64,000 nucleotides of DNA, taken from assembly GCA_002428935.1 (NCBI GenBank), contig DIYG01000026.1, positions 20,946-84,945 of the forward strand, written 5' to 3'. The stretch comes from Halieaceae bacterium UBA6060. GTDB taxonomy: Bacteria; Pseudomonadota; Gammaproteobacteria; Pseudomonadales; Halieaceae. Below, piece by piece: positions 27,469 through 50,079 of this stretch; the stretch's first letter is position 1, and every line of letters starts with the position of its first letter. The position numbers were made by a program, and so were the translations under genes. Below the pieces are notes generated by a model. It was given only the letters and a program-made list of their open reading frames with translations, made no database searches and was not told the origin of the DNA.

Positions 27469-29982
27469 TCATGGGGTATCTTGCCCGGTAACGGGCTCCC
27501 AGTGAAGGTCTCCCGCATAACGCACCACTATGGCTCCATCATCATACACCGCGAAGAGCTTGAGCCAGCCGTTGTCGGCCAGATGCCGCACATGCTCGTG
27601 GCGCTCCAAAATATCGTTAATGGCGGCTATGGGCGCCGCCAGAAACACGGATAGGCGCATGGGCTCGTGGACGGGTTTCTCGCCATTGTGCACCGACTGC
27701 AGGGGCAAACCCACCCGCAGATCGCCACCGTTACCCTCAAAGACACCAATGCTGGCGCCGACCACGTTATGGAGTGTTTTGTTGCCGCTGCCGAAACGCT
27801 GGTTATCGACCGTGGATCCGTAGTACTGGAGGCTAATCCAACTGGCCACCACCATGGGGGCGGTCATGATGAGTTCCAGCACACTAAAGTCTTTGTCTTC
27901 TCGATAATCGTAGGAGTGGAGAAAGCTCCGCCCACCGAGATCTAGCCGTTGGCTGAGTTCCCTCGGGGCAGCGATGAAGCCCGCGCAACCGGCCAGCCCC
28001 CACTCGGGACGCACATCGCTCCAGTCACGACTTTTCCGCAGCACCGCCGCGTGCACGTCTTCGTTCGGGGCCAGGGCGAGAAGCTGCCGGCGTTCGCCTC
28101 GCGCCAGGTTTCCGGCCTCAGCGAGATCACGGCGCAGTGCTTTAACAGCCTGGTAGTGGGAAGGAGGCATGCCGTCTTCATCAAAGAGCGAGAACTCGTC
28201 GGTGGTGGTGTTGTGGAGCGCCGCGACGAATACTGTGTCCTCAGGAATACCAAGCCCCCGCTCCGCTAAAGCCTCGCGCACCGCCGGGTTGTTGAGAATC
28301 AAAGCCGCGATACGTGCACTCGCTTCTCCCGTTTGCCCACCGCAGGCCCCACAGTCCAGACCCGCGCCATGGGCATTGTTAGTCGTTGTCGAGCCATGAC
28401 CGGCCAGAAGGACCAGGGGCGCAAAACCCTTGGTCAGGGACATGCCTCGCAAGATGGACTCGGCGAACTCAATCTGCCGATCCAGGCCCACCTCTTCCCC
28501 GCCGGTTAGGGAACGAAGTTGTGGTCCCAGGTCCCGCGCCAGGCGCGGGGGCAGGCCTCGATGACGAGGATGAGGTTCTGGTCTGGACAGACCCAGGCTG
28601 TGGGCGGCGAGCTTCAGCGCGTAGGCCAACCCATAGCTCTCGACAAACACGAAGCATGAGACCGCCGAGCTCCGAAAGGCGCGCCAACCATGGCTCAGTT
28701 GCCGCCGCAAACGCACGCGCCGAGACAGGCGTTCAGTAATGTCCTCGGGCTGGGCATGCACGGCCTCGCGCACGGCCAGCGCCGGCTCCAGCAGCACCGG
28801 ACAATGGGCCGGCCCGCGCTGCCCGTCTAGAGGGATGTATTCAACGGGTAAACCAAAGAAACCGGCGAAGCCCAGGGTCTCGATGCGGTCATTGACCGAC
28901 TCCAGCGCGCGACGGAACACCTCTGAGCGCACATCGATGCAAAATACGGCCTGGGCATCTGGCCGCCGCACGGCGGCCGAAGCCCCCCCACCGCGCAGGG
29001 CTGTTATGGCTCCCCGCTCCCAGGCTTGCTCATAGGCTTCGTGAATCAACAGCTTGAGCCATTCTTCACGCTCCAGAGGACGCTGCGTATCCGCCTGAGG
29101 AAGCGCAAGGTTGATCGCCCGACGCCAGGCAAGTTCCGCACCCTCATCGGTGTAGGCCCGGAGCAGCAAAAGCTCCCAGGCGAGGCGCACGGCCAACAGA
29201 TCGACGACGAATTCTGGGGCATTGCCCGCCAATTCTTGTTGCCAACTTTGGTAGCGGGCGTAGGCCACCCAACCACCGACGCTCATCAGCAAACGGTGCA
29301 GATACAGCTCGAGAAGAGACTCTGGCACCGCCAGTCGCTGCAATGCGTATTCACAAAGGGCCTCGGGGGAATCCGGTAACTGACCCAACTGCTCCTGGGC
29401 TCCGTGAAGACCGAGGATCGTATCGCTGCAATCGATAGCCGCTTCCTGCTTCCAGGCGCTGTAGGGCCGCAGATGGGCGAACGGTGATGGCCAACTCGCC
29501 TGACCCGCGTCGAAGTATCCCGCCGCCCAATGGGACACCCGCTCCAGCACCTGTCCCGACCAATCTTGGTCGCTGATCTGCCCACAAACCTCCGCGCAGT
29601 GAGGAAGGGCTTTGGATTCCGTGTCCACACCCGTCGTAAGATACTGTTGCAAATCATCCGCACGGAACTGCTCGCCCAGATCTCGCCGTGCAATAGCGGC
29701 CTGAAGATCTCCAGCGGTAATCCGCCCTTCCGCCAGAGCGTCGCGGTAAAACCCTACGGGCATCAGCATACGTCCATCACAAGCCAGGCTCACTCGACGA
29801 GAAGCAGCCTCAAAGCGCTCCTCGGCAAAGCCCAGAAATGGATTAACGGCAACAAACTGATCCAGGGGCCACAGGGGGGCAACGCGTTTGACCACCGACG
29901 CCACAGCTTCACGCACCGCGGGCTTAGCCGGCGGACGATTACCGGGGAGATGGCGAACAACAGCCGATTCTCGAATGGTCAT
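27469..29982 (-). CDS. dabA: DAB inorganic carbon pump subunit A (DUF2309/UPF0753, beta-CA-like)
   Basis: WPLDQFVAVNPF, zinc ligands FCIDVRSE / GHGS / LDCGACGG, RSRDW-like KSRDWSDVRPEWGL, SGNKTLHNV. Confidence 0.93.
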   Translation of the reverse strand: MTIRESAVVRHLPGNRPPAKPAVREAVASVVKRVAPLWPLDQFVAVNPFLGFAEERFEAASRRVSLACDGRMLMPVGFYRDALAEGRITAGDLQAAIARRDLGEQFRADDLQQYLTTGVDTESKALPHCAEVCGQISDQDWSGQVLERVSHWAAGYFDAGQASWPSPFAHLRPYSAWKQEAAIDCSDTILGLHGAQEQLGQLPDSPEALCEYALQRLAVPESLLELYLHRLLMSVGGWVAYARYQSWQQELAGNAPEFVVDLLAVRLAWELLLLRAYTDEGAELAWRRAINLALPQADTQRPLEREEWLKLLIHEAYEQAWERGAITALRGGGASAAVRRPDAQAVFCIDVRSEVFRRALESVNDRIETLGFAGFFGLPVEYIPLDGQRGPAHCPVLLEPALAVREAVHAQPEDITERLSRRVRLRRQLSHGWRAFRSSAVSCFVFVESYGLAYALKLAAHSLGLSRPEPHPRHRGLPPRLARDLGPQLRSLTGGEEVGLDRQIEFAESILRGMSLTKGFAPLVLLAGHGSTTTNNAHGAGLDCGACGGQTGEASARIAALILNNPAVREALAERGLGIPEDTVFVAALHNTTTDEFSLFDEDGMPPSHYQAVKALRRDLAEAGNLARGERRQLLALAPNEDVHAAVLRKSRDWSDVRPEWGLAGCAGFIAAPRELSQRLDLGGRSFLHSYDYREDKDFSVLELIMTAPMVVASWISLQYYGSTVDNQRFGSGNKTLHNVVGASIGVFEGNGGDLRVGLPLQSVHNGEKPVHEPMRLSVFLAAPIAAINDILERHEHVRHLADNGWLKLFAVYDDGAIVVRYAGDLHWEPVTGQDTP

Positions 29983-30002
29983 GGGTAGATCTCCTCGATG
30001 AC

Positions 30003-31574
30003 TCAGCGAGACGCCCGCGACTCGACGTCGCTTAGCGCCATGAACTGATTGATGAGTTGATTGATGTAGAAACCGTTGGACAGGTGGACCCAGAAAGCCT
30101 GCCAGCGCCGATTACCTTCGGCGGCGGGCAGATACCACTGCAAGGCGGTAATGCCGCCAAAGGCCAGCAACACAAATCCCATGAGCAAGACCTGTATCGA
30201 ATTCAAGGGCCCCGCCGCCGGTACCGCTGTCTCAAAAACCACGGCTGCCAGCGCCTGCAAGGTGAAATAGAGTCCGGCCACTACCGTGGCCGTGGTCGCC
30301 GCCCGCGCGAGCACCAGGAAAGAAGGTGCTTCCCGCCCCGACTGGATAAGCAGGTGCATGGCTCCCAGGACTAAGATGGCGCCGAGGCCGACAATGGCGG
30401 GCTTGTTCGCCAGGGTCATGCCCATCCAATTGCTCCAGGTGAAGAAGATGACACTGGCAATGCCCAGGCTCGCCAGCACCAGGGGAAGGCGAACCGCTGG
30501 TGACGGCTCTGCCGCCGCACGACCCCGAGCCATGTCAACAACACTGCCCGAGGACAGAAACGCGTGCGCCTTGTACAGGGAGTGGGCGATGATATGGAGC
30601 TGCGCCGATGCAAAGGCACCAAGGCCACACTGCAATAGCATGAACCCCATCTGAGCCACGGTGGAATAAGCGAGTGCCCCTTTGATGGTTCGCTGCGTCA
30701 TCATCACCAGGGAGCCGAATAGTGCCGTTAAACCGCCGACAAGGAGCAACAAATACAGCGCCGGCCCCTGGGTAACGATCACGTCCGCGAAACGGATAAT
30801 CAGAAATCCCCCGGCATTGACGATTCCCGCATGGAGCAGCGCTGATACGGGTGTGGGTGCCTCCATGACCTCAGCCAACCAGCCGTGGGTGGGGAATTGG
30901 GCAGATTTGAGTATCGCCGCAAGCACCAGAAACAATGCCGGTGCGGTCAAAGGTGGTGCCTTTGGATTCGCCGCCAGCTCCGCGATGACGGCAATGTCAG
31001 CGGTACCCGTGCGCAGCACCAGCAACAGAGCCGCCAGAGCCAGGGCCAGGTCGCCGCAGCGGGCAAGAAAAAACTTTTTCCGCGCCGCCAGATGAGCCCG
31101 TGGACGATCGGGGTAGAACAACAGCAGGCGATGAAGGGAAAGACTCATGGCCACCCAGGCCGCAAGCAACAGCCAAACGCTGCCGGCGACGACGAGCAGG
31201 GACACGCTGGCCAGGGTTTGGCAAAGATAGGAGAGAAATGCGGCCTGGCGAGGGTCGCCACTGAGATAGCCGTGGCTGAAGCGAACCACAACAGTGCCGA
31301 CAAAGCTGATCAAGGAAACCATGGCAATGCTGACGGCGTCGATGCGCAAAAGCAGAAGCTGCCCAGCGACACCAGGAGCCTGCAGGCTCTGGGGACCCTG
31401 AAGGACAAGAACCCCGATGCAAGTCATCGCGCCAAGCAGGGCCAGCAAGCCCCCACCAATACTGGCCGTGCGCGCGGCCTGCTGACGATAGTCGTGCCCA
31501 GGTCGGCTCAATAATCCGCCCACCAGCCATGCGAGGGCTGGGGCGAGAGCCAGTAGGCCGAGGGAAACCGCCAT
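30003..31574 (-). CDS. dabB: DAB pump membrane subunit B (NuoL/ND5-like proton-conducting transporter)
   Basis: KSAQFPTHGWLAEVMEAPTPVSALLHAG, LAYSTVAQMGFM and HSLYKAHAFL; directly upstream of dabA. Confidence 0.9.
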   Translation of the reverse strand: MAVSLGLLALAPALAWLVGGLLSRPGHDYRQQAARTASIGGGLLALLGAMTCIGVLVLQGPQSLQAPGVAGQLLLLRIDAVSIAMVSLISFVGTVVVRFSHGYLSGDPRQAAFLSYLCQTLASVSLLVVAGSVWLLLAAWVAMSLSLHRLLLFYPDRPRAHLAARKKFFLARCGDLALALAALLLVLRTGTADIAVIAELAANPKAPPLTAPALFLVLAAILKSAQFPTHGWLAEVMEAPTPVSALLHAGIVNAGGFLIIRFADVIVTQGPALYLLLLVGGLTALFGSLVMMTQRTIKGALAYSTVAQMGFMLLQCGLGAFASAQLHIIAHSLYKAHAFLSSGSVVDMARGRAAAEPSPAVRLPLVLASLGIASVIFFTWSNWMGMTLANKPAIVGLGAILVLGAMHLLIQSGREAPSFLVLARAATTATVVAGLYFTLQALAAVVFETAVPAAGPLNSIQVLLMGFVLLAFGGITALQWYLPAAEGNRRWQAFWVHLSNGFYINQLINQFMALSDVESRASR

Positions 31575-35011: not shown

Positions 35012-38000
35012 TTAGAAACGGACGGACAAACCTACCCGAAGTTCCCAGAGAGAACGCTCTTCTTGCACGTCGTTGATGTTCCGGTCCGTGAAGCTCTCAA
35101 AGACATAACGCCCCTGATCATCAATCGATGAATCGACGACCTGCTGCGAGAAGAATTGAGCTTGCGTCTGCACGCCCCAATCATCGTTGAGCATGTTAAG
35201 GAAGTTATAGACCTTGATGTAGCCAACACCTTTGATGTCGTTATAGATCGGAAATTCCTGATCAAGACGTAGGTCTAAACGATAGCTCCAGTCGGCGAAC
35301 TCTTCATTACGTTTGGTAAAGCCGGTGCTGAGACCTTCGCGACGACGCCATGCATCGAAAGCGTCGTAATCAAAAGAGTCAGCGAAAACGACCGCCGGAT
35401 CATCAGGCCCCGTGGGCACGTAAAGCAAGTGACGACCGAAGAAACCGTCGCCTTCCAGATCTTGAGAACCCATTACGTAGCTTTGCGGCTGACCTTCTTG
35501 CCAGAAGCTGTACAGCGAGAAACGAGTTTCATTGTCGCCAAAGAACTTCTGGCGATAGTTCAAGCGGAAGGTGAAGCGATGGGGAATCACGTAGTTGCTG
35601 GTGGCAGCGGCCGGTTCGACGATGTCATTCAGAGCCACATTGCCGAAGTTTGAAGCTGCCACAGAGGAAGTCATGGGGCTCACATCTTCCGCATCCGTGT
35701 AGGCGTATCCAAACAGGAAGTCCACACCATTGTCGAAGAACTTGCGCACGCTAACGCTGAAGACGTGTGCTTCTGGATTCTGATTGGAGTTCGTCAACAT
35801 GTAGTTCTCTTCGCCAAGACCATCTACGAAGTCGTAGATAGGTTGACCCAGAACCGTCGTACCCACCTGCTGCTGAGAAACATCAACGTAATAGGCTACG
35901 TCTTCACCGCGGGTATAAAGATAGTCCGCATCGATTATGTAGCCGTTCCAGTCGTAGGTCGCTCCAAGGGAGAACTTCCATTCCGATGGTTGCTCGTAAT
36001 CAGGATCAACCAGAGCAAGGAAGGAATCACTGGCGTCTTCATCGGATACGGCGAGCACGTCATCTACTAGAGACTGAGGAACATCATAGCCCGGGCGCTG
36101 CTCACGACTGAGATCTAAGGAATCCTCGGAACCTGGCAGAATCGTCGCGCTACTGTCGAAGTTCCGGAGCTGGAACTGGGCGTTAGAGATACCGTCGTTG
36201 GAGTAAGAATTACTCAGCCAAACGTTGGGGTTACCGCCGGAGTACAGACCAAAACCTCCTCGAATGGTGAGGTCATCATTGTAATCCCAGGTGACGCCGA
36301 CACGAGGCATGAACAGATCCGTTCCATCAATGGTCTCGTCATTTCGGAACCCGTAGGCATCAGAAAACGCCTGGTTGAACCGAGGAGCATCGTCAGTCTC
36401 CCACCACTCGTAGCGCAGTCCAACGGTTACGTTGATATCGTCGCCGATAGAGAAGTCATCCTGAATAAACACGGCATTAAGCGTGTTAGTGAAACTCGCT
36501 GCGGCATCATTTGGATCGTTGGTTCCGCCACCGCTGCCGTAGTAGATCCGGCTGGGACGACCTAGTTCAAACTTGTCCAATCCCGTGGTGCCACACTCTG
36601 CGTTATCAAAACGTCCCTGAGCGTCCAACGCCGCACAGAAATCTGGGTTGCCCGCGGAGTCATCGAAGTAGTCGTACTCGCCGCCATTGGAGTGCTGCAC
36701 AAAGAGATTAAAAACATCCAGCTCTTCACGATGGTAGCCGAAGGTTATGTTGTGATCGTTGAACAGATACTGGGCGTTAAGGCGGAAATACGTTGCATCG
36801 TAGTTCAGATCGTTGGCCTGACGAGAATCGTCGGCACCGAGATAAATTGTGTTTCGGTCGATATCGGAGATCTGATGATCGCCAAAGTCCAGTGGGCCCA
36901 CGGTCACCTGGCTATCGTTCTGCTCTTGGGTACCGATGAACAAATCTGTGGAGAAGTTATTGGTCCACTGGCTCGACAGGAAGCCTGAGAACGTCGTGTT
37001 CTCGTCACCCTTCACGTAGTAGTGATTTTCGAACTCGAATTCGTTGTCGTCGCTATCGGAAGCACGATCCTGGAAACCTTCGTAGTAGTTGTAAACAAAG
37101 GAGGCTTGGTGGGTTTCGTTTATATTCCAATCAACCCGGGCGAAATACTTCTCACCTTCCTGTGAGCCGTCACCAGGTAGGCCGCCCGGATCATAGTTGT
37201 AGGTATTTTGAGCAATATCGCGCACACGGTTGAAATCACTTTCGCTCAACCACGGACGCTCTTCGCCACTTCCGGAACCCGCAAAGCCCTGGGCAAGAAA
37301 TCTCGGGACTTCCTGCTTCTCGTAGGCAAAGCTAACGAAAAGCGTGTCTTTAATCAGAGGGCCCTGACCAGAGAAGCCGTAAAACTTCTCTTCGTAGGGA
37401 TCGATGTTGAAAGGAACTCCCTCAACTTCGTCGCCACGTAAGCTGTCGTCGGTGTACTCGTAAAAGGCACTACCGTGCCACTCGTTCCCGCCGCGCTTGG
37501 TTACCGCGTTGATGTTACAGGCGGAGAATCCGCCATAGCGAACGTCAAAGGGAGCGATCTCAACCGCTACCTGCTCTACCGCATCAAAGGGGAAAGGCAT
37601 CCCCGTCGCGGTGCCATAACCGTTGTCGTTCAAACCAAACTGATCGCTGTAGCGAACGCCATCGAGAGTTGTGGTGTTGAAGCGAGGACTTTTTCCGGTG
37701 CAGTTAACAGCACCTTCGTCGCCTTGGACATTGATACGCGGATCCATGGCGAATACGTCTTTGATATCTCGATCGAAGGCAACGGCGCTTTCGAGATCTT
37801 CAATTCCAAAGTTAGCTGAAGGACCCGGCGCTACGTCAAACGTCTGCGCCTGGCCCAGCACGATAACCTCCTCGATAGCACTGGCTCCACCCACAACTAA
37901 TGGCAGCTCGTAAGCACCACCCAGGGATATCGATTGCACAGTGGTTTGCTTCACCCCATTTACGCTTACAGCGTAGGGGCCACCAACGGCAAGGTTACGG

Positions 38001-38242
38001 ATAGAGTAGGTGCCACTCTCGTTGGCTCTCGTGGTACGGCGGGTACCAGAGCGCTCGTCGACCACCAAGATTTCAGCTCCAGCAGCGGGGTTTCCCTGCG
38101 CATCAACCACTCGACCGGTGATCTCCGCTGACTGTTGCTGGGCGTAAGCGGCGACCGGCAGCATAGCTACGCCGGCTGTGCTCGCAGCAATCGCACTGAC
38201 AAGAGCTTTTCGTACAAATACCTGACTAAGTGACTTCTTCAA
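35012..38242 (-). CDS. TonB-dependent receptor, Oar-like, with N-terminal carboxypeptidase-regulatory-like domain
   Basis: Signal peptide, ITGRVVDAQG..AAGA, plug motif GGFSACNINAVTKRGGN and C-terminal LSVRF. Confidence 0.92.
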   Translation of the reverse strand: MKKSLSQVFVRKALVSAIAASTAGVAMLPVAAYAQQQSAEITGRVVDAQGNPAAGAEILVVDERSGTRRTTRANESGTYSIRNLAVGGPYAVSVNGVKQTTVQSISLGGAYELPLVVGGASAIEEVIVLGQAQTFDVAPGPSANFGIEDLESAVAFDRDIKDVFAMDPRINVQGDEGAVNCTGKSPRFNTTTLDGVRYSDQFGLNDNGYGTATGMPFPFDAVEQVAVEIAPFDVRYGGFSACNINAVTKRGGNEWHGSAFYEYTDDSLRGDEVEGVPFNIDPYEEKFYGFSGQGPLIKDTLFVSFAYEKQEVPRFLAQGFAGSGSGEERPWLSESDFNRVRDIAQNTYNYDPGGLPGDGSQEGEKYFARVDWNINETHQASFVYNYYEGFQDRASDSDDNEFEFENHYYVKGDENTTFSGFLSSQWTNNFSTDLFIGTQEQNDSQVTVGPLDFGDHQISDIDRNTIYLGADDSRQANDLNYDATYFRLNAQYLFNDHNITFGYHREELDVFNLFVQHSNGGEYDYFDDSAGNPDFCAALDAQGRFDNAECGTTGLDKFELGRPSRIYYGSGGGTNDPNDAAASFTNTLNAVFIQDDFSIGDDINVTVGLRYEWWETDDAPRFNQAFSDAYGFRNDETIDGTDLFMPRVGVTWDYNDDLTIRGGFGLYSGGNPNVWLSNSYSNDGISNAQFQLRNFDSSATILPGSEDSLDLSREQRPGYDVPQSLVDDVLAVSDEDASDSFLALVDPDYEQPSEWKFSLGATYDWNGYIIDADYLYTRGEDVAYYVDVSQQQVGTTVLGQPIYDFVDGLGEENYMLTNSNQNPEAHVFSVSVRKFFDNGVDFLFGYAYTDAEDVSPMTSSVAASNFGNVALNDIVEPAAATSNYVIPHRFTFRLNYRQKFFGDNETRFSLYSFWQEGQPQSYVMGSQDLEGDGFFGRHLLYVPTGPDDPAVVFADSFDYDAFDAWRRREGLSTGFTKRNEEFADWSYRLDLRLDQEFPIYNDIKGVGYIKVYNFLNMLNDDWGVQTQAQFFSQQVVDSSIDDQGRYVFESFTDRNINDVQEERSLWELRVGLSVRF

Positions 38243-40411: not shown

Positions 40412-40666
40412 AAACCTTCTTCCTCTTCACTATTGTTTTAAGTGCCCGCAGCCGAGCGGAGCACTAGTACACCGGAGCATCTCGCCTCCGGTGCGCCAAT
40501 CTCAGTGCTGCTTAAGCAAGTAAAGGCCTGGAAACCCCAGAGTCTTGTCCATGTTTTGTCTACATTATGAATTGGGATTTTATTCCCAATATTTGCAAAA
40601 CACTCCAATTGGGATTATTTTCCCATTCAACGTTCATCACGTATGACCTGATCTGGAGAAATAACC

Positions 40667-41875
40667 ATGGGAAGTGTGCGAGACATCGAGCAATGGCGTA
40701 GTCAGATTCTTGAAGATAGCGAGGCAATTCTTGCGACCTTGGCGCAGGACGGCGATCAGAAAGGCAGCCAACCGACAAATCTTGATTCGGCAACCGTGAC
40801 CGACGCTAAGGTCGGAGAAATACTGCGGTCCAGCCCCTGGGCATTTAGCACCCGGCGCGTCGACCGCTCCGTCGCCCAGACGATCCTCCCCAGTGCGACG
40901 CCGCAAGCCGGCGATCTGGTGCTGGCTCGCGTTGATGCCCTGGGCCATCACGCGAATCTCCAGCTCACGGATGGACGTCGGCGGCGGCTTTTTCCTGGTG
41001 ACACCATCGTCGTCGCTTACGGAAATCGCTACGCCTGCGAACAGTTTGAGGCACGAGTTCCCGACCACCTGGGACCTTGCCACCTGGTAGCAGGAGGCGG
41101 CATCGCATCGCACGCCATAAGCTGGCATACGCGCATCTCTCGAGGACCAACACGGATTACCCCTCTCGGGATCCTGGGAACAAAAGAAGGCCGCGCGCTC
41201 AACCTGCGGGACTTTGCCATCAAGGCGCCATCAAAGGATCAAAACCGTAGCTCTGCCAGTCCCTCGGTGATCGCGATTCTCGGTACCGCCATGGATGCCG
41301 GTAAGACCCAGACGGCGGCGTTTCTCCTACGCGGTCTGCGATCTGCTGGATACCGTGTGGGCTACGTGAAGATCACGGGCACAGGCGCCGGAGGCGATAC
41401 CTGGCTGCTGCAGGATGCCGGCGCGGATCGGGTTCTAGACTTCACCGACGCCGGAATGGCGTCCACCTATCTCGCGGACATGCCACAGATCGAGGCCGCC
41501 ATGGACACGCTCCTGGGAGATATGGCCATACAGGGTATGGATATCGTAGTCATGGAGGTGGCCGACGGCGTATATCAAAGGGAAACCGCCCAACTCATCG
41601 CGGGCAAGACCTTCGCCCGCGCCGTTGACGGTATGGTCCTCGCCGCGCGGGATGCCATGGGAGCCAGCGCCGGTGTGTCCGTCGCCGGCGCATCAGGCGT
41701 CCCCATCCTCGCCCTGAGTGGACTCCTCTGCGCCTCACCCCTCCAGCGCCGAGAAGCCGAAGCCGCAACGGGTATTGCATCGGCGGATCGCGAAGAACTG
41801 GCGACGGCATCCATCGCCCAGGGATTGTTCGATCAAATCAAAATCGGCCAGCTGAATCAGGAGGTCTGCGCATGA
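40667..41875 (+). CDS. DUF1611-type P-loop protein
   Basis: VVAYGNRYA..QFEA, GTAMDAGKT P-loop, KITGTGAGGD and MEVADG. Confidence 0.8.
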   Translation: MGSVRDIEQWRSQILEDSEAILATLAQDGDQKGSQPTNLDSATVTDAKVGEILRSSPWAFSTRRVDRSVAQTILPSATPQAGDLVLARVDALGHHANLQLTDGRRRRLFPGDTIVVAYGNRYACEQFEARVPDHLGPCHLVAGGGIASHAISWHTRISRGPTRITPLGILGTKEGRALNLRDFAIKAPSKDQNRSSASPSVIAILGTAMDAGKTQTAAFLLRGLRSAGYRVGYVKITGTGAGGDTWLLQDAGADRVLDFTDAGMASTYLADMPQIEAAMDTLLGDMAIQGMDIVVMEVADGVYQRETAQLIAGKTFARAVDGMVLAARDAMGASAGVSVAGASGVPILALSGLLCASPLQRREAEAATGIASADREELATASIAQGLFDQIKIGQLNQEVCA

Positions 41876-42765
41876 TCGCTCAGCCCGTGGAAAACGCCAT
41901 CTCCGAGCTTCCCCTCGCCGCCCTCCTCCAGGGTGGCGAAACAAAGGCCGCCCCGAAGCTGGACTACCTCAGCTACATACCGAGCAACGTAAACAGGCTG
42001 CTTGAGCCACTCGTGTTTGTCCATGGCTACAGCCGTCGAGCAGAAGATCAACTGAACGCTTTACAGGAGTTGAGCGAGCGCACATCGCGAGCCCTCATAG
42101 CCCCCTGCTTCACAAAGGAGCAACACCGCCGGTATCAGCGTCTGGGACGAGGTTCCGATGGTATGCGTGCCGATGCCTACTTCAACGCCTGTCTGGAGCA
42201 CGCCGCCGAGCAACACGAGCTCTCCGTGGATCGCATCATTCTCCTCGGGTATAGCGGTGGCGCCCAGTTCAGCCATCGATACGCCATGATTTACCCCCAA
42301 CGCGTCGCGCGCTTAATTGCCATCGCAGCGGGGTGGTACACCTTCCCCAATCCCGAGGTGAGCTTCCCCTACGGGTTGGCCACGGCAAGAAAACTTCGCG
42401 CCGTCAGCATCAGCCCAGAGCAGTTCCTCCGCATTCCCATGACCGTGCTGGTTGGCGCCAAAGACCTGGACACAGTGAACCTGCGCCGCAACGTCGAGCT
42501 CGACACACAACAGGGAAGCACCCGCGTCGAACGTGCTCGCCGCTGGGTCCTCGCCATGCGCATGGCCGCGCGTTTGTACCGCGTACCCGCCGACATCAGC
42601 TATCAGGAAGTGCCCGGCATCACCCACAGCTTCGATGAGTTTGTGGCACGAGGGCATCTCATCGAGCTGGCCTATGCAGCGATCGATGACACCCCCGTAC
42701 AAGGCTCGTCGACAGAGGAAACAGGCTCAAACTACGCCGAGGAGTCTCGTCATGGCGAGAGCTGA
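41872..42765 (+). CDS. Alpha/beta hydrolase (GYSGGAQF family)
   Basis: FVHG, GYSGGAQFSHRY, AAGWYT, FPYG and HSF; ATGA overlap with the upstream gene. Confidence 0.85.
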   Translation: MIAQPVENAISELPLAALLQGGETKAAPKLDYLSYIPSNVNRLLEPLVFVHGYSRRAEDQLNALQELSERTSRALIAPCFTKEQHRRYQRLGRGSDGMRADAYFNACLEHAAEQHELSVDRIILLGYSGGAQFSHRYAMIYPQRVARLIAIAAGWYTFPNPEVSFPYGLATARKLRAVSISPEQFLRIPMTVLVGAKDLDTVNLRRNVELDTQQGSTRVERARRWVLAMRMAARLYRVPADISYQEVPGITHSFDEFVARGHLIELAYAAIDDTPVQGSSTEETGSNYAEESRHGES

Positions 42766-43954
42766 AGCCTTGGCAGATCCTGTTCCCGCCCGCGAAAACG
42801 ATGAGCCCAAGGACCAGGAAGTCACCCTCACAGAACCGGCGACCACGGAGCCGACGGCGCAGCCCGGTGGTGGAGGCCGTCGTGGTTTCCTCCGCTTTGC
42901 GTCGGCGTTGCTGCTTTTGGCCTTGCTTATCCCTGTGAGCCACTGGATGCACTTTCAGGCCACGCATATCGTATCGCGCAACGCCTTGGTCCGCTCACAC
43001 CTCTCCCAACTTGGGGTCCGTGGCGAGGGCATTGTAGAAACGATTCACGTCCGCGCCGGAGATACGGTACGTAGAGGTGACCTCCTGGCCCAGTTGGACG
43101 ACCGGCATCTGCAGGCACGACGCGCGGCCTCGGAGGCGGCCCTGGCGACTTTGGAACAACGTATTGCCCTGGAGAGCGCAGAGCTCCGCTTTGCCCGCCG
43201 CGGTGCAGAGGTCGACCTGGCTCAGGCCACGGCAGAATATGCCCGCATGCGCGCCGAAGCCGAAGCGGCGCGGCTACGGGCCGAAGATGCGAGGGCTTTT
43301 CACGCCGCTCGCGATGCCCTGGCCGACGATGGGGCGATTTCCCGGGAAGTGATCCGCGACGCCGCAGCGAAAGCCGCCACGGCCAAGTCCATGGCCCAGG
43401 CCGCATCGGCATCAGCGGTGGGTACCGTTGCCTCGCTACAGGCCGCCGAACTGGCCATCGAAGCCCTCGCCCTTAGGGAAGCGGAGCTCAAGGTTTTACA
43501 GGCCCAGAAGCGCGAGGCGGAAGCAGAACTCGCCCAGGTACAGAGCGATATAGAAAGCATGCGTATCTTGGCGCCCGCCGACGGCGCCGTGGTACGACGC
43601 CTGGCGCAACCGGGTATGGCGGTGGAAACGGGAACACCCATTCTCAGCCTCTGGTTGGTAGACGACACCTGGATCGAAGCCTGGATTCCCGAGGAACGCC
43701 TCGGTGAGCTGGCCCAGGGTAGCGCGGTGCAGGTCTCCTTCCCGGCCCTTCCCGGTGAGCGCTTCGCCGGAACCGTCGCCCGTATCGGTCTGGCGACAGA
43801 TTTCGAGATGCCCCAGGACTACCTTCCACAAACCCGGGAAGCCCGTATGCGTCCAACCCCACTGGTGGGTGTGGAAGTCCGCATCAGCGGCGCACCGGAG
43901 TTGATTCGTCCCGGCTTATCAGCGGTGGTCGATATCCAGCGGGAGGGTTCGTAA
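42752..43954 (+). CDS. HlyD/EmrA family membrane-fusion (periplasmic adaptor) protein
   Basis: N-terminal TM anchor, lipoyl half-motifs VRAGDTVRRGDLLAQLD and ILAPADGAV, Ala-rich coiled coil, IRPGLSA. Confidence 0.92.
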   Translation: MARAEALADPVPARENDEPKDQEVTLTEPATTEPTAQPGGGGRRGFLRFASALLLLALLIPVSHWMHFQATHIVSRNALVRSHLSQLGVRGEGIVETIHVRAGDTVRRGDLLAQLDDRHLQARRAASEAALATLEQRIALESAELRFARRGAEVDLAQATAEYARMRAEAEAARLRAEDARAFHAARDALADDGAISREVIRDAAAKAATAKSMAQAASASAVGTVASLQAAELAIEALALREAELKVLQAQKREAEAELAQVQSDIESMRILAPADGAVVRRLAQPGMAVETGTPILSLWLVDDTWIEAWIPEERLGELAQGSAVQVSFPALPGERFAGTVARIGLATDFEMPQDYLPQTREARMRPTPLVGVEVRISGAPELIRPGLSAVVDIQREGS

Positions 43955-43957
43955 GTC

Positions 43958-45838
43958 ATGGCCACCGGTAACGCAGTAAATACCCCGTCGCGCAGACTCT
44001 TTATCGACCGGCAACGCATTCCAACGGTCTGGCTGCGCGTCCTTCTCGGGGTTGCGGTCCTGCCATTGATCGCTCTGAACCTGCGCATGCTAGCTCTCGG
44101 AGCGGCCGATCCTTCGGGCCTGCTCAGCATCGGAGAGTGGCTTAACCACTCCATGAATTTAAACTGGGTGGGCCCGGCAGACCGAAGCGTGGTGCTTTAC
44201 ATCCTTCTCCTGCCCTTCGCCGCGCTACTTATCGCTCTGACCCGCCTGACCCTTGGGATTCGAGTCCTGGGTTTTCGCGCCATACTCATCGCTATTGGTT
44301 TTCAGGAAATCGGTTTGCTACCGAGCCTGCTGCTGATACTGCTCATCGCGACGACGGTGGTTCTGGTCCGTCCCATGATGCGCCGCTCCGGCATGCCTCT
44401 GTATGCGCGGGTTGCGGTGATTCTATGTATCGTCGCGACCACCATGGTCCTGAGCCTCCTCGCCGGCAGCTGGCTGAACTCCGCCACCCTTTGGAGCATG
44501 GCGTTTTTTCCTGTGGTCATCCTCGCCATGCTCGCGGAAAGCGTTGCAGATACCGTCGCTCGCGAAAACACCGCCATGGCTGCCTGGCGCACAGCGACCA
44601 CCATTACCCTGGCCGGAGTCATCGCCGGACTCAGTCAAGTCACCGTGATTCGCGAACTGGTGTTGGCCTGCCCGGAACTGCTCGCCACGCAAACTGCGTT
44701 GATCGTTTTTGTATCCGAGTTTTTGGATCTCAGGCTGTTCGAAAGCTTTCGCCCTGGCGAAAACAAACGCCAGGATGCCGAGGCTGCCCGAGGGCATGTG
44801 GTACTGGTACGCAATCGCTTTGGCGCGGCTCCCATCGCACAAACATCATCTGGAGCCCCGCGCCGCTACCGTCGTGCCGCCCTTCAGCCGTTTATCGACG
44901 GCCTCCGCGCACAAGGTTTCAAGGTCGATGTTGTTGAGGGCGATAGCAGTTTGCCGTCAAAGCTCCGCAACCTCGCCGGTTCGCGATCCCCGTCTTCCTC
45001 CGCCCCACCTCTGGTCATCAACTGCGCCGGTGGTATGCACGGAGCCGGTCGCCTTGGCCAGGTCCCGGCCATCTGCGAAATGCTTGGACTGCCCTATTCA
45101 GGGCCTGCGCCTCAGGCACCGGCACTCTTGGATGATCGCAGCGCACAGCTCTCGGTTCTGGGCCGTGCGGGTTTGTCGGTGCCGAAGACGCTCTCTCGGG
45201 ACGAAGCTGAGACCCTCCTCGCCCGGGAAGACACGAGACTGTGGGTCCGTCCTCGCTTTCAAGGCGATCGCAGCGCGACTGCCGTCCGTAGCCAACGACA
45301 ACTTCGGCGGGCACTCGAACGTACGGAAGAACGTTTTGGTACCGCCATGATCGAAGCGATACCTAGGGGCCGAGGACTTAGCGCCGTGGTGCTTCAGCCC
45401 CAAGATGATGCAAGAGCTATGGTCCTACCGCTGCTGGAAAAGCTCCCGAGTACGGGCCGCTTTCAGCAAGCTCATGGTCTATCCGCGGAGCATGGGTCAG
45501 CCATACGACAGCAAGTGATTGCCTGTGCGCGCGCCCTCGGGTGTCGCGACCTGGCGCGGATTGATCTGATCTGCGACGAGCAGGGCCGTATCACTATCGC
45601 GCAGGTGCTAGCCATCGAACCTTTGTCCAAGAGCGGACCTGCCCACCGCGCTGCGGCCCTCGCCGGCCTTTCACCCGCAGATCTCGGTGAAAAGGTACTG
45701 CAGTCCGTCCTCACCCGAACAGGGACCGGCACTGATCACAAATACTCCGGCCCAAAGGTGTCGGCTACTCGTAATCCAACTCAAAACAAGAGGAGTTCAT
45801 CAGCGTGCGTTACTTTGCACTCATCCGCGACGGCATAG
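43958..45838 (+). CDS. 7TM_transglut-like membrane domain fused to a degenerate D-Ala-D-Ala-ligase-like ATP-grasp domain
   Basis: LLLPFAAL..LTRLTLGIRVLG, FFPVVIL...E, PELL and LDLRLFE (7TM). Then VINCAGG...GQVPAICEMLGLPYSG and RDLARIDL (Ddl-like). Confidence 0.8.
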   Translation: MATGNAVNTPSRRLFIDRQRIPTVWLRVLLGVAVLPLIALNLRMLALGAADPSGLLSIGEWLNHSMNLNWVGPADRSVVLYILLLPFAALLIALTRLTLGIRVLGFRAILIAIGFQEIGLLPSLLLILLIATTVVLVRPMMRRSGMPLYARVAVILCIVATTMVLSLLAGSWLNSATLWSMAFFPVVILAMLAESVADTVARENTAMAAWRTATTITLAGVIAGLSQVTVIRELVLACPELLATQTALIVFVSEFLDLRLFESFRPGENKRQDAEAARGHVVLVRNRFGAAPIAQTSSGAPRRYRRAALQPFIDGLRAQGFKVDVVEGDSSLPSKLRNLAGSRSPSSSAPPLVINCAGGMHGAGRLGQVPAICEMLGLPYSGPAPQAPALLDDRSAQLSVLGRAGLSVPKTLSRDEAETLLAREDTRLWVRPRFQGDRSATAVRSQRQLRRALERTEERFGTAMIEAIPRGRGLSAVVLQPQDDARAMVLPLLEKLPSTGRFQQAHGLSAEHGSAIRQQVIACARALGCRDLARIDLICDEQGRITIAQVLAIEPLSKSGPAHRAAALAGLSPADLGEKVLQSVLTRTGTGTDHKYSGPKVSATRNPTQNKRSSSACVTLHSSATA

Positions 45839-46371
45839 ATCCGGCGCCCTTTCTTGAAGAAATCGCCTCTATGAACCAGGCCTGGGACATTGCTACAGGG
45901 CGGCAGGACAAAATTCGTGTGCAACGCGAGGCCCTGGCCATTCCCCTTCGCGGTCTGCGTAAATCTGCCCTCCAGGGACGGAAGCGCCGCGACGTCTGTG
46001 AGAGCCGTTGGACCAGCGGCTCAAAGGACTTTCCCCTGGCCTGCGAGTTCATTCGCGACACCGCCAGCACCCTCGGTTGTGACCCGGGCCGAGCCAAGAT
46101 CGTCAGTCTTCCCCCGGGACGTCGGGTTTATCCGCACATCGATCGAGGCGACTACTACCGCCTCCACGGCCGTTTTCATCTGGTTCTCCGCTCCTCCCAC
46201 GGCTCCCTACTCCGGGCCGGTAAGGAAACTCAACGACTCCAGCCCGGTGAGCTATGGTGGTTTGACAACAAACAGGTACATGAAGCCTGGAATGACGGTA
46301 CGGAGAACCGCATTCATCTGATCTTCGATTTGTTACCCCACACGCACCGCCTGGCCGCCACAGGAACTTAG
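45805..46371 (+). CDS. Aspartyl/asparaginyl beta-hydroxylase family Fe(II)/2OG dioxygenase
   Basis: HID...RFHLVL...[12 protein letters not shown]...RIHLIFD; GTG start with AGGAG RBS, overlapping the upstream gene. Confidence 0.85.
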
Positions 46372-47261: not shown

Positions 47262-47583
47262 TCGGTCCTCGTAACCCTATTTCTGTCCTAAAGAGGCGGC
47301 GGTAATACCTCTCATTTAAGTGTGCCTATTGTACCGCGCCATCGTCGCTGAGCGGGTAGGCCGGGAGGCGGTCAGCGCGAGCTTCCAGCTCTACAGATTG
47401 CAATCGCGGCTAGCGGGAACACCTGATTGGCGATCGGTCGCGCCCAAGTAGCTGTGAGGGGAATTTCAAAAAACCATCAGATTTTTGTCATGGGACTTTA
47501 ACCCAAGGAAGCGAGAGTTTTGCGCGCTGTTACCTGAATCGAAGCTGGCCGCCGCCTTTCTCGTCCACTTCCCGGAGCCCATC

Positions 47584-50079
47584 ATGAACACGCCTCGTAG
47601 ATCCAAGCCCTTCGCCACTGCGATCGTCTGTGGTCTAACGGTATCCACGTTCGCCGAAGCGCAAACCTCCGGCGCTATCGAGGAAACCGTAGTTTTCGCG
47701 ACCTCCATCAAGCAATCTGAAGCTTCCGCCATTTTGACCAAGCGCGAGGCGCTGAACGTCGTAGACGCAATCTCCGCGGACACTATCGGGCGCTTTCCCG
47801 ATCAAAATCTCGCCGATTCCCTTGCCCGTGTTCCCGGCATTGCCATCGAAAGGGATCAGGGCCAAGCAAGGTACGTCAATCTCCGCGGCGCGCCATTTCG
47901 CTACACAGCCATCGGCTTTGATGGTATCGACGTCCCAGGCGCTGAGAACGGTCGTATTCCCCGTTTTGACAGCTTCCCTGCGGTCATCACCCGCCAGCTA
48001 AAGGTCAACAAGGCCGTAATGGCCAACATGCCCGGCGAGGCCGTGTCAGGCTTCATCGACATCGAAACCCATAGCCCCTTCGACCAGGAGGGCTGGGGAG
48101 CAGCCGTGGACTTTGGCTTGGGTGAGCAGGATCTCGGCGGTGGCGACGTGGAGCGCGGCGCCCTTCGCTTGAGTTGGTCCGGCGAGCGCTTTGGTGTGTT
48201 GGGTTTTTACTCCGAGAACAGCCGAGAGCAGACTACCGACAACCGCGAATTCGAATTTGGCCTTAGCGATGATGGAACGCCCATCCCAGTAAGTGTCGAC
48301 TTTCGTAACTACGAAATAACCCGATCGGATCAAGCCTACGGCGGCACCCTGGAATACCGGGATGAGGGAGCTATCTCACGGGTCTACTTCACAACGCTTT
48401 ACTCCGAGTTCACCGATGAAGAACAGCGCAATCAATTTGTTTTTGACTTCCTGGCGCCGCAACCGGGCTTGACCGCAGAGGGGGCTCCACTTTCCGTGAG
48501 TCGTGTGCTCCAGGACGGTGTTTACGAGAACAGCACGTTTACCAATACATTAGGCATCGAATTCGAAGTCGCCGGCTTCGACGTTCATGCCGCGTACAAC
48601 TACACGGAAACGGAATTTCTGCAGAACCTTCCCCTGCCCTTCGAGACGGCAGGTTTTGCGGCGGTTGTTAATGACACTCCCGTCCCATTCCTCGGGGATT
48701 ACGACTTCAGAAGCCAGACCGATCCCAAGTTATTCCTCAGTTCACCACTAGCCCCCGGAGCGTCCGCGGACCCGGCTGACGCAGTGTTTCTTGCCCAGCT
48801 GGGCATCGTCGTCTTCAACCCTCTGGATCAGGAGATCGATAAGTTCAAGCTCGACATAAATCGTGAAATAAGTGCGGCATCGAGTATCGATTTCGGCTTA
48901 CAGCTTGATCAGCGCGAAGCCGTGGGAGGCTCACTCAATCAGGCGGTCTTGCCGTTCCCAACGGACTCCGTGAACATCAACGACTTCAACACGGGTCGAC
49001 TCTGGCGATCGAATCTCACCAACACCATTGGTGGCACCTACTATGACAATGCGGGGCTCAATCAGGCGTGGCGCGACACACCGCTCTATCCATCGAACGA
49101 AATACCGCCAAACCTGAGGGTCAATATCAACGAGGACATCCTCGCGCTGTATGGCATGTACACGCAGCAGTTTCCCTGGGGAAGTGTGGTGCTCGGGCTA
49201 CGGGTTGAACAGACCGATGTGGAAAATCAGGGCCTGGACGGACTCGTTATCGAAGATGACTTCACCAACTGGTTACCCAATGCGCATCTCAACTACAGCT
49301 TTACCGAAGATCTTCGACTCCGGGTTTCGGCCAGCTCAGGGGTGAATCGACCCACCTACAATGAATGGCGCGCCACCGCGGCCATCGATCCCATCGAAAT
49401 GGAAATCCGTGGTGGGAACCCCAGGCTCGAAGCGGAAGAGTCCTATGGGGTTGATGTGTCCCTAGAGTACTACCTTGAGAACGGTGGCCTGCTCTCTGCC
49501 GCTTACTTTTATCGTGTCGTCGACAACGTCATCTACGCAGATTCCGCTCCCGTAAACGGTGGGATATTTGATCCGGCCTTGGCCGATCAGGATTTCACTT
49601 ACATCGGTTTCCTCAATGGCGATGACGGGGAGTTCACGGGCATTGAACTCAACGCGGTGTACTTTGCCGACGCGTTGTTGCCCGGACTCGGGGTAAGCGC
49701 GAACGTCACCCTGGCCGATTCAGAGTTTACCCAGCAGAACGGTGAGACTCAGGGATTGCCCGGCACCTCAGACATGATCTACAACGTCGCCCTCTTCTAC
49801 GAGAACTTTGGATTCTCCGCCCGCCTTAACTATAGCTGGCGCGACGAATGGATCTCACCCATCGAAGATCCCGAGGAAGTGTGGGGCGAGATGGAACGCC
49901 TGGATGCTCAAATCAACTACACCCTGCCCTTTGACCTTTCTGGCGCCGAAGCGAGTGTCTACGCCAGTTTCAACAACCTAACCGATGAAACCGATGTGCG
50001 TTTTGCGGGAAATGGAACGATTAATCAGGCAGAGAGCTTTGGATTTCACTACTTACTCGGTGTCCGCCTGAACTACTAG
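47584..50079 (+). CDS. TonB-dependent receptor
   Basis: Signal peptide, DTIGRFPDQNLADSLARVPGI..ERDQGQARYV.LRG plug motif, aromatic C-terminus VRLNY. Confidence 0.93.
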   Translation: MNTPRRSKPFATAIVCGLTVSTFAEAQTSGAIEETVVFATSIKQSEASAILTKREALNVVDAISADTIGRFPDQNLADSLARVPGIAIERDQGQARYVNLRGAPFRYTAIGFDGIDVPGAENGRIPRFDSFPAVITRQLKVNKAVMANMPGEAVSGFIDIETHSPFDQEGWGAAVDFGLGEQDLGGGDVERGALRLSWSGERFGVLGFYSENSREQTTDNREFEFGLSDDGTPIPVSVDFRNYEITRSDQAYGGTLEYRDEGAISRVYFTTLYSEFTDEEQRNQFVFDFLAPQPGLTAEGAPLSVSRVLQDGVYENSTFTNTLGIEFEVAGFDVHAAYNYTETEFLQNLPLPFETAGFAAVVNDTPVPFLGDYDFRSQTDPKLFLSSPLAPGASADPADAVFLAQLGIVVFNPLDQEIDKFKLDINREISAASSIDFGLQLDQREAVGGSLNQAVLPFPTDSVNINDFNTGRLWRSNLTNTIGGTYYDNAGLNQAWRDTPLYPSNEIPPNLRVNINEDILALYGMYTQQFPWGSVVLGLRVEQTDVENQGLDGLVIEDDFTNWLPNAHLNYSFTEDLRLRVSASSGVNRPTYNEWRATAAIDPIEMEIRGGNPRLEAEESYGVDVSLEYYLENGGLLSAAYFYRVVDNVIYADSAPVNGGIFDPALADQDFTYIGFLNGDDGEFTGIELNAVYFADALLPGLGVSANVTLADSEFTQQNGETQGLPGTSDMIYNVALFYENFGFSARLNYSWRDEWISPIEDPEEVWGEMERLDAQINYTLPFDLSGAEASVYASFNNLTDETDVRFAGNGTINQAESFGFHYLLGVRLNY

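Follow-up and report, generated by a model that had tools for sequence, protein, structure and literature searches.

An undescribed and widely conserved five-gene operon in a Halieaceae bacterium that may process and export an acidic amino-acid product

We analysed 64,000 nucleotides of DNA from Halieaceae bacterium UBA6060 (assembly GCA_002428935.1, contig DIYG01000026.1, positions 20,946 to 84,945 of the forward strand), a stretch that we call the window, in which five tightly packed genes, A to E, occupy positions 40667 to 46371. These genes form an operon that is real, widely conserved and undescribed. The literature that we searched contained no description of the ABCD(E) arrangement, nor of related operons in which E, B and A precede an ATP-binding cassette (ABC) exporter; an earlier reading of the sequence (the original prediction) likewise knew of none for the five-gene combination. 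That prediction proposed that the operon builds, tailors and exports a poly-amino-acid or peptide product. The outline of this logic is supported by an exchange of exporters around the same three enzymes, seen in five out of five sampled loci, but the role of synthase given to D is refuted for the window, and the product is one that we infer. We tentatively favour a reading in which an oligomer or polymer, acidic and of the Asp type, is the substrate of A, B and, where present, E and is exported by C and D, D itself not being a synthase.

All five genes lie on the forward strand. Gene A (40667-41875, 402 residues) encodes an N-terminal domain (the N-domain) followed by a SIMIBI-class P-loop NTPase domain, and B (41872-42765, 297 residues) an alpha/beta serine hydrolase of the PahZ1 family. 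Gene C (42752-43954, 400 residues) encodes a periplasmic adaptor of the EmrA/HlyD type, D (43958-45838, 626 residues) a PF14402 membrane part joined to a Ddl-fold domain, and E (45805-46371, 188 residues) a soluble Fe(II)/2-oxoglutarate oxygenase of the AspH family. A and B share a 4-bp ATGA overlap, the overlap of B with C is 14 bp and that of D with E 34 bp, and 3 bp separate C from D. The tight coupling originally described is thus confirmed, with corrections to the start of C and to the extent of the D/E overlap. C likely starts at the ATG at 42752, which is preceded by a GAGGAG ribosome-binding site, rather than near the first GTG of its open reading frame (ORF). E starts at a GTG with AGAGGAG, and the alignment of homologues from residue 1 onwards supports this start; its stop overlaps the stop of the convergent folD.

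We scanned one genome per species, which returned 77 loci encoding relatives of D, and compared loci by tblastn with the five window proteins and by clustering of ORFs. The order A>B>C>D is kept in about 30 loci from at least five phyla. Within the Gammaproteobacteria these belong to Halieaceae, Woeseiaceae, Chromatiaceae, Methylococcaceae and Thiobacillus; outside them, to Acidobacteriota (including the isolate Acidobacteria bacterium Mor1, which carries the four-gene core), Planctomycetota, Krumholzibacteriia and delta/Myxococcota. The genes that flank the operon in the window recur in 0 of the module loci compared. An order that recurs in about 30 independent genomes while the flanks recur in none is beyond chance, and the unconserved flanks make of the module a self-contained unit. 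E is present in 18 loci only, all of them from close gammaproteobacterial relatives plus marine and TARA contigs; one of these relatives, Chromatocurvus halotolerans DSM 23344 (locus L009), is a type strain in culture and carries all five genes. The expectation that the five genes would be conserved together therefore stands for A to D and fails for E: the broad core has four members, to which E, in this arrangement, adds a clade-specific fifth. Four loci (L001, L002, L006 and L045) have an extracytoplasmic function sigma/anti-sigma pair between C-D-E and a divergent B'-A' pair. The gene that follows B'-A' in three of them (c27; L002, L006 and L045) was considered as an ABC exporter and rejected.

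The evidence that bears most directly on function comes from loci in which the enzymes have another partner. We sampled five E homologues unlinked to D, one from Tateyamaria and four from metagenomic contigs (L088-L092). In 5/5 of these loci we found E > B > A > ABC exporter, the last with ABC_membrane and ABC_tran domains (e.g. L088:8001-12093). Identity to the window genes is 64-68% for E, 36-42% for B and 39-43% for A, and A and B retain their catalytic motifs. None of the L088-L092 operons contains C, D, or any HlyD, seven-transmembrane (7TM) or ATP-grasp gene. These operons, which to judge from our searches are as undescribed as that of the window, thus have the three enzyme families in common with it and differ in their reversed gene order and in having an ABC half-transporter in place of C-D. 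The coupling of the same trio either to C-D or to an ABC exporter suggests that A, B and E are a functional core and that C-D does the exporter's job. C-D would then be an exchangeable exporter, and export the direction of transport. Since the ABC protein has its own ATPase, A is not merely the motor of a transporter. Most of these operons continue with a HisKA/OmpR two-component pair. A conserved lipoprotein gene lies just upstream in L089 and L090, where a conserved GTGAATGAAAATGAAAATAG.CGTTAAAAAACAAT element, unlike the operator of the window, is also found about 150 bp 5' of E.

D was originally taken, as a fusion of 7TM and ATP-grasp domains, for a membrane synthase. Its transmembrane (TM) part (residues 24-255, nt 44027-44722) has about eight helices and includes the PF14402 domain (7TM_transglut, 61.5 bits for a cut-off of 25, residues 77-265); the N-terminus is positively charged and, by hydropathy and by the AlphaFold2 (AF2) model, cytoplasmic. 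The residues invariant in the D family are concentrated in this membrane domain and many are charged (R96, R102, R107, R138, R151, E194, R211, E240, E254, D257 and R259). The cytoplasmic domain that follows (residues 280-590, nt 44795-45727) has the fold of a ligase with degenerate motifs (VRPRFQGDR, IEA, AQVLA). The AF2 model, with a predicted local distance difference test score (pLDDT) of 84.5 and values of about 90-97 over residues 300-590, gives the full three-subdomain Ddl fold (Foldseek against Ddl/VanA, E = 2e-14, TMt up to 0.80), and by profile the E-value of the match is 1e-29. D thus has all three fold subdomains of the D-Ala-D-Ala and D-Ala-D-Lac ligases DdlB and VanA, but its domain is membrane-tethered and has replacements at the ATP lysine, in the GEDG and E-x-N motifs and at the second Glu of EE. 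In comparison with VanA, vfvKPARSGSS reads lwvRPRFQGDR in D (Lys to Arg, SGSS to QGDR), GEDG reads GRLG, IEE reads IEA, and the Mg ligands E305-x-N307 read Q549-V-L551 (Glu to Gln, Asn to Leu). From these residues, the domain appears to have lost ATP and Mg binding and would be at most a docking or substrate-binding domain.

This loss follows the company that D keeps. We tabulated the catalytic motifs of 56 D relatives. Where A or B is present in the locus, the Asn of D is missing in 32/32 proteins, most of which also lack the Glu and the Lys; the lysine is replaced, by Arg or otherwise, in most relatives of the ABCD type. All three residues are kept in 19/19 D proteins without A or B in the locus, which are either separate-gene versions with a gamma-glutamyltransferase (GGT) and a KamA-like radical S-adenosylmethionine (SAM) enzyme or fused versions with C only. 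The other five degenerate D proteins lie on short or cut contigs. A metagenome-assembled genome of Thiohalocapsa has both states: A-B-C-D-E with a degenerate ATP-grasp domain in L005, and C-D with an intact one, without A or B, in L039. Having lost its catalytic residues, D is best described as a conserved membrane protein with a pseudo-ligase domain and not as a synthase.

One could still suppose that D works as CapB and CapC do, its ATP-grasp domain ligating acidic amino acids and its 7TM part translocating the chain, with A, B and E as accessories. Relatives with an intact ATP-grasp domain fused to or beside the same 7TM domain do exist, either with HlyD and no other partners (L033, L039) or, in L046-L077, alongside GGT, an AlgE-like porin and a KamA-like enzyme, and for such intact ancestors or paralogues the model probably holds. 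For the window we judge it very improbable. Besides the ATP lysine and both Mg ligands, the domain lacks the Gly/Ser loop; its Dala_Dala_lig_C score is 30.3 bits, against 120 bits in L033; the Asn is absent from every D protein that co-occurs with A/B; and the E-B-A + ABC operons have no ATP-grasp domain at all. The proposed likeness to CapBC did not survive the comparison either. Between the 7TM domain and CapC/PgsC we could detect no homology (hhalign probability 0.4-0.5%, E about 0.1), and we rejected such a kinship; Pfam at E <= 10 returned a single, chance-level CapC match (E = 4.5) in one distant relative. CapBCA/PgsBCA and the CphA system are alike to the module in concept only, as ATP-dependent or membrane-associated systems for amino-acid homopolymers. 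GGT (CapD-like) and CphA-like genes recur beside modules related to that of the window, but the module itself has no CapB/Mur-ligase-type gene and its operon no cphA-like gene. The L046-L077 clusters with PF14402 (e.g. L069-L071, L075) come from Planctomycetota, Eisenbacteria and Bradyrhizobium. Their order is GGT > 7TM > intact ATP-grasp > (AlgE-like alginate-export porin) > KamA-like radical SAM > lamin-tail-domain protein, and they look like a capsule-like polymer system centred on an ATP-grasp ligase.

The constant partner of D is C. The adaptor matches HlyD_D23 (72.5 bits) and HlyD_3 (56.9 bits) in Pfam, TIGR01730 (99.2 bits, cut-off 94.9) and EmrA (4tko, 6e-13). It begins with a 44-residue, acidic and poorly conserved cytoplasmic tail, followed by a single TM segment (residues 45-63). 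In more than 40 related loci the neighbour of C is D, and in none of them is an ABC, major facilitator superfamily (MFS) or resistance-nodulation-division (RND) pump beside C. This supports the proposed pairing of the 7TM protein with the HlyD adaptor, and also the claim that no pump accompanies the latter, which holds for the ORFs that we scanned in the window: no ABC, RND or MFS gene was found among the flanking ones (33-52 kb) or the ten largest others. C shares with the tripartite efflux systems of the EmrAB-TolC type the EmrA-like build with an N-terminal TM anchor. It differs from them in that its conserved neighbour is a PF14402 protein instead of an MFS, ABC or RND pump, and the module has no gene for an outer-membrane factor.

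The same adaptor argues against a catabolic role, in which exogenous polyaspartate- or cyanophycin-like material would enter through the flanking TonB-dependent receptors and be degraded by B. PahZ1 enzymes have been described in polyaspartate degraders (PMC13017698). Genes for TonB-dependent receptors do flank the operon (35012-38242 and 47485-50079), and another lies 4 kb upstream in L079. Yet the module is not accompanied by these flanks in other loci, adaptors of the HlyD/EmrA type serve export, as do half-transporters of the ABC_membrane type, and B has no signal peptide. We regard import and degradation as extremely improbable, the least probable of the readings considered here.

B itself matches the alpha/beta hydrolase family in Pfam (29.6 bits, cut-off 25.8), carries the motif GYSGGAQFSHRY, and finds as best PDB matches (phmmer) PahZ1 9o7u (E = 7.4e-16), PahZ1 6ve6 (9.6e-13) and LpqC 3d0k (2e-12). 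In PahZ1KP-2, S126, D194 and H249 are catalytic and R215 positions the substrate (PMC13017698). Ser128, Asp198, His252 and Arg218 of B align with these four residues, in that order, and are invariant in 41 family members from the loci. The statement, in the original prediction, that hydrolases with GxSxGAQFxHR include PahZ1 was thus correct, and B is predicted from its residues to be active as a serine hydrolase. It shares with the PahZ1 enzymes of Sphingomonas sp. KT-1 and Pedobacter sp. KP-2 (6ve6, 9o7u) the fold family, the GxSxGxQFxHR motif, the triad and the Arg. It differs from them in its identity of about 25-30% over the aligned region, in its translational coupling, elsewhere fusion, to the P-loop protein, and in its location: having neither signal peptide nor TM segment, B is read as cytoplasmic. 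Many ABCD loci also encode further PahZ1-like paralogues, which are longer and have signal or lipoprotein peptides.

E belongs to the Asp_Arg_Hydrox family (PF05118, 71.8 bits, cut-off 22.6), and among solved structures it comes closest to the catalytic domain of human AspH (2e-9). Both metal-binding His (in PHID and VHEAW) and the 2-oxoglutarate-binding Arg (in ENRIHL) are kept, there is an Asp at +2 after the first metal-binding His, and no TM segment is found. E looks, on this evidence, like an active hydroxylase. It has 992 homologues at E <= 0.001, and the best 120 of the 992 are 63-78% identical to it.

Might these enzymes tailor a lipid instead? E would then be an acyl hydroxylase like LpxO or OlsC, B an esterase or acyltransferase, and the exporter would flip or extrude an amino-lipid or lipid. 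E does match LpxO and OlsC in NCBIfam, but at 16-17 bits against cut-offs of 450-500; it lacks a TM segment, and AspH, its closest relative of solved structure, is a peptide hydroxylase. B likewise matches models of polyhydroxyalkanoate depolymerases and esterases, weakly, but the Arg specific to PahZ1 is still present in it, as is the GxSxGxQFxHR motif. Genes for LPG_synthase_C (aminoacyl-lipid synthase-like) beside ABCD in several loci would fit such a role, as would the ABC partner, a half-transporter like MsbA. On balance, lipid tailoring seems improbable to us.

A different substrate would be a peptide or an acidic secreted protein. E would hydroxylate its Asp or Asn, B would be a peptidase and A a chaperone or NTPase, with C-D or the ABC protein exporting the matured product, in the manner of peptides that are made on the ribosome and modified after translation (RiPPs). 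Enzymes of the AspH type do act on peptide-bound Asp/Asn, and modifying enzymes together with an ABC exporter and a two-component system make a typical RiPP layout. Very acidic secreted proteins also adjoin some of the operons. L091:4416-6113 encodes an extremely acidic secreted protein of 565 residues with long poly-Asp/Gly tracts, and L006:12517-14643 an extremely acidic secreted subtilase with about 250 residues of (AAEE)n in front. Yet we found no plausible precursor-peptide ORF in the leader of the operon in the window, and none is conserved beside the module in other loci. The ABC exporters of the E-B-A operons lack a C39 peptidase domain, and the closest relatives of B cut a homopolymer, not leader peptides. 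We give protein or peptide maturation a low probability.

The remaining member of the enzyme core is A. The original prediction called it a DUF1611 P-loop protein, the only one of its labels to prove wrong, as it fails the Pfam threshold: DUF1611_C reaches 18.4 bits for a cut-off of 25, over just 44 residues around the P-loop, and AAA_26 is likewise below its cut-off. No DUF1611 N-terminal domain was found in A either. We rejected this membership and retain only the same P-loop class. The best Pfam match of A is MobB, marginal at 29.3 bits (cut-off 26.6), TIGR00176 scores 27.5 bits (cut-off 76.2), and MobB proteins lack the N-domain of A. This domain (about residues 45-195) is beta-rich and conserved; the P-loop NTPase domain (residues 197-400) has the Walker A motif GTAMDAGKT, followed by KITGTGAGGD and EVADG. 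We found no Pfam family or PDB relative for the N-domain, and no solved relative of A by sequence, with either a single sequence or a profile. The AF2 model (pLDDT 83) gives the same two domains, and Foldseek matched the C-terminal one only, to SRP54/FtsY, DUF1611 2obn, the dethiobiotin synthetase BioD, MeaB, MinD, HypB and Wzc; 2obn ranks sixth (TMq 0.36), among generic SIMIBI matches. The P-loop signature GT-x-x-D-x-GKT, followed by K-x-TG, would place A near enzymes of the BioD, CobQ and DUF1611 type, several of which activate carboxyl groups.

The family of A is large. We counted more than 1333 homologues, and an exhaustive search with the N-domain gave 640 clusters at 50% identity. Ten unusually long members of the N-domain family, searched with Pfam, had as companions only the P-loop domain or a transposase (an artefact). 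Conservation within the family is very high, and the positions invariant in it include W58, TRRV62-65, GD82-83, H95, R121, Q126 and AGGG142-145 in the N-domain, and the Walker A motif G206-x4-GKT214, K235-x-TGTG, D258/D261 and E297-x-x-D300 in the P-loop part. The most conserved stretch is that of residues 121-159 (nt 41027-41143; NRYAxEQFE...AGGG). Cys138-His139 was considered as a catalytic dyad and rejected, as it is not kept in the orthologues from E-B-A + ABC operons. About 25 of the best 120 homologues of A are 650-700 residues long, and in one of these (P0207) residues 390-654 are 44% identical to B. Such proteins are thus natural fusions of A and B, and they occur in the same C-D context.

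What might the trio act on? At least nine loci have, beside ABCD, a truncated gene that resembles cyanophycin synthetase (E = 8e-82 to CphA1). Other frequent neighbours of ABCD are a cyanophycinase-like gene of peptidase family S51, YheC/D ATP-grasp, LPG_synthase_C-like and GGT genes, and genes for lamin-tail-domain proteins. The window is without a CphA-type synthetase or a cyanophycinase in the operon and in the flanking and largest ORFs scanned. Taken together, the CphA-like neighbours, the kinship of B with PahZ1 and the family of E point to an aspartate-based, amide-linked oligomer or polymer as the product.

The closest studied system with a PF14402 7TM protein suggests another view. Systems that combine 7TM_transglut (PF14402) with ATP-grasp proteins were reportedly predicted by Iyer et al. 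in 2009. In the rloABC operon of P. aeruginosa, RloB is the 7TM protein, RloC an ATP-grasp protein and RloA a hydrolase, and the product is not known (PMC12239564). By analogy, the module of the window might make and process a periplasmic peptide or modify the envelope for its homeostasis, and so be of importance under osmotic or envelope stress, with C as a periplasmic scaffold and nothing secreted. The two systems share the 7TM family, although D matches the RloB model NF052267 at 29.9 bits for a cut-off of 900, and the general theme of 7TM, ATP-grasp fold and hydrolase, which in rloABC goes with envelope-related phenotypes (PMC12239564). The PahZ1-like paralogues that are periplasmic in many ABCD loci would also suit a role in the envelope. 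Yet the module has neither the periplasmic inactive transglutaminase-like domain, nor the retropepsin, nor the RimK-like ligase; the ATP-grasp domain of D is Ddl-like, fused and catalytically degenerate; the hydrolase is of the alpha/beta type, and an adaptor and a P-loop protein are added. Moreover, the B of the window is a cytoplasmic protein, a classical ABC exporter goes with the trio elsewhere, and adaptors of the EmrA type normally bridge to an outer-membrane channel. We consider this alternative unlikely.

We thus return to the favoured reading of an enzyme core and an export route, which would be the two halves (A, B, E and C, D) of a single repressor-controlled operon. A and B would act jointly on an oligomer or polymer that is acidic, amide-linked and of the aspartate type. 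B would cleave or transfer amide bonds of the beta-aspartyl type, and A would provide NTP-dependent activation, loading or gating. E would hydroxylate residues of the Asp/Asn type, and C-D would carry the product through the envelope. How A and B share the work, like the energisation of C-D, is something that we infer. A more specific version goes further and is, in our view, doubtful. There, C-D would be an unrecognised class of envelope-spanning exporter, the PF14402 7TM protein being the inner-membrane partner of the EmrA-like adaptor. It would be fed by A, a BioD/CobQ-like carboxylate-activating ligase that replaces the dead ATP-grasp domain, with the PahZ1-like B as partner, and the product would be an oligo- or polyamide rich in beta-hydroxy-aspartate.

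Several observations weigh against what we propose for the operon. The fold match of A is generic for SIMIBI NTPases, and MobB, its best Pfam match, is a GTP-binding protein without enzymatic function. The most conserved stretch of A is modelled with pLDDT < 50 and predicted to be disordered; this part of the model suggests that a partner or a substrate may be needed for it to fold. The family of E also includes the lipid hydroxylases LpxO and OlsC. For the PF14402 domain, we found no sequence or structural similarity to a known transporter (the top 50 Foldseek matches of D are all Ddl and uninformative for the 7TM part). No polymerase is evident in the operon, and the ORFs that we scanned in the 64 kb, namely the flanking and the largest ones, include no cphA-like gene. 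As to co-transcription, the runs that contain the sequence are of DNA only and are labelled "coral metagenome". Finally, PahZ1 was assayed on synthetic thermal polyaspartate, and its natural substrate is not known (PMC13017698).

The repressor control invoked above concerns the leader of the operon (40540-40660), which is AT-rich as originally noted. Two operator-like palindromes of the form TGGGA-N6-TCCCA stand in it. The first (O1, TGGGATTTTATTCCCA, 40573-40588) lies 5' of a putative -35 hexamer, TTGCAA (40593-40598, forward strand); the second (O2, TGGGATTATTTTCCCA, 40610-40625) overlaps a putative -10, TATTTT (40616-40621), 17 nt downstream of the -35. O2 is found 54-74 bp 5' of the start of A in L007, L008, L009, L010, L013, L015, L016, L017 and L068, and a second, upstream copy corresponding to O1 also in L008, L009, L010 and L017. 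The -35 reads TTGACn in relatives, its column being kept as TTGAC in nine related loci. A sigma-70 consensus scan of the leader called no promoter, the -35 having 8/12 matches, and the position given here is that suggested by the phylogenetic footprint only. The placement of O2 over the putative -10 suggests a repressor operator, and the palindromes suggest that the operon is under the control of a repressor. The gene for such a regulator is not within the module, and we could match TGGGA-N6-TCCCA to no regulator known to us.

Besides the TonB-dependent receptors, the flanks of the operon encode a beta-lactamase-family protein, folD, a phosphatase and a rhodanese, and housekeeping genes make up the ten largest other ORFs of the window. 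An Rfam scan of the window found no more than a tRNA, elsewhere in it, and PADLOC models of defence systems matched none of the five proteins. At 27469-31574, on the reverse strand, the window also carries a pair of inorganic-carbon transporter genes of the DabA/DabB type (DabA 886 bits, with a Proton_antipo_M subunit).

If these proposals are true, they would have consequences beyond the operon itself. A product rich in beta-hydroxy-aspartate would be a strong chelator of Ca2+ and Fe3+, of interest for a coral-associated marine bacterium. Adaptors of the HlyD/EmrA type would gain a new type of inner-membrane partner, and the large family of A its first functional handle. The so-called polyaspartate hydrolases of the PahZ1 type would find a physiological context. 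And D would be an evolutionary case of a ligase domain decaying to a pseudoenzyme once another pair of enzymes joins.

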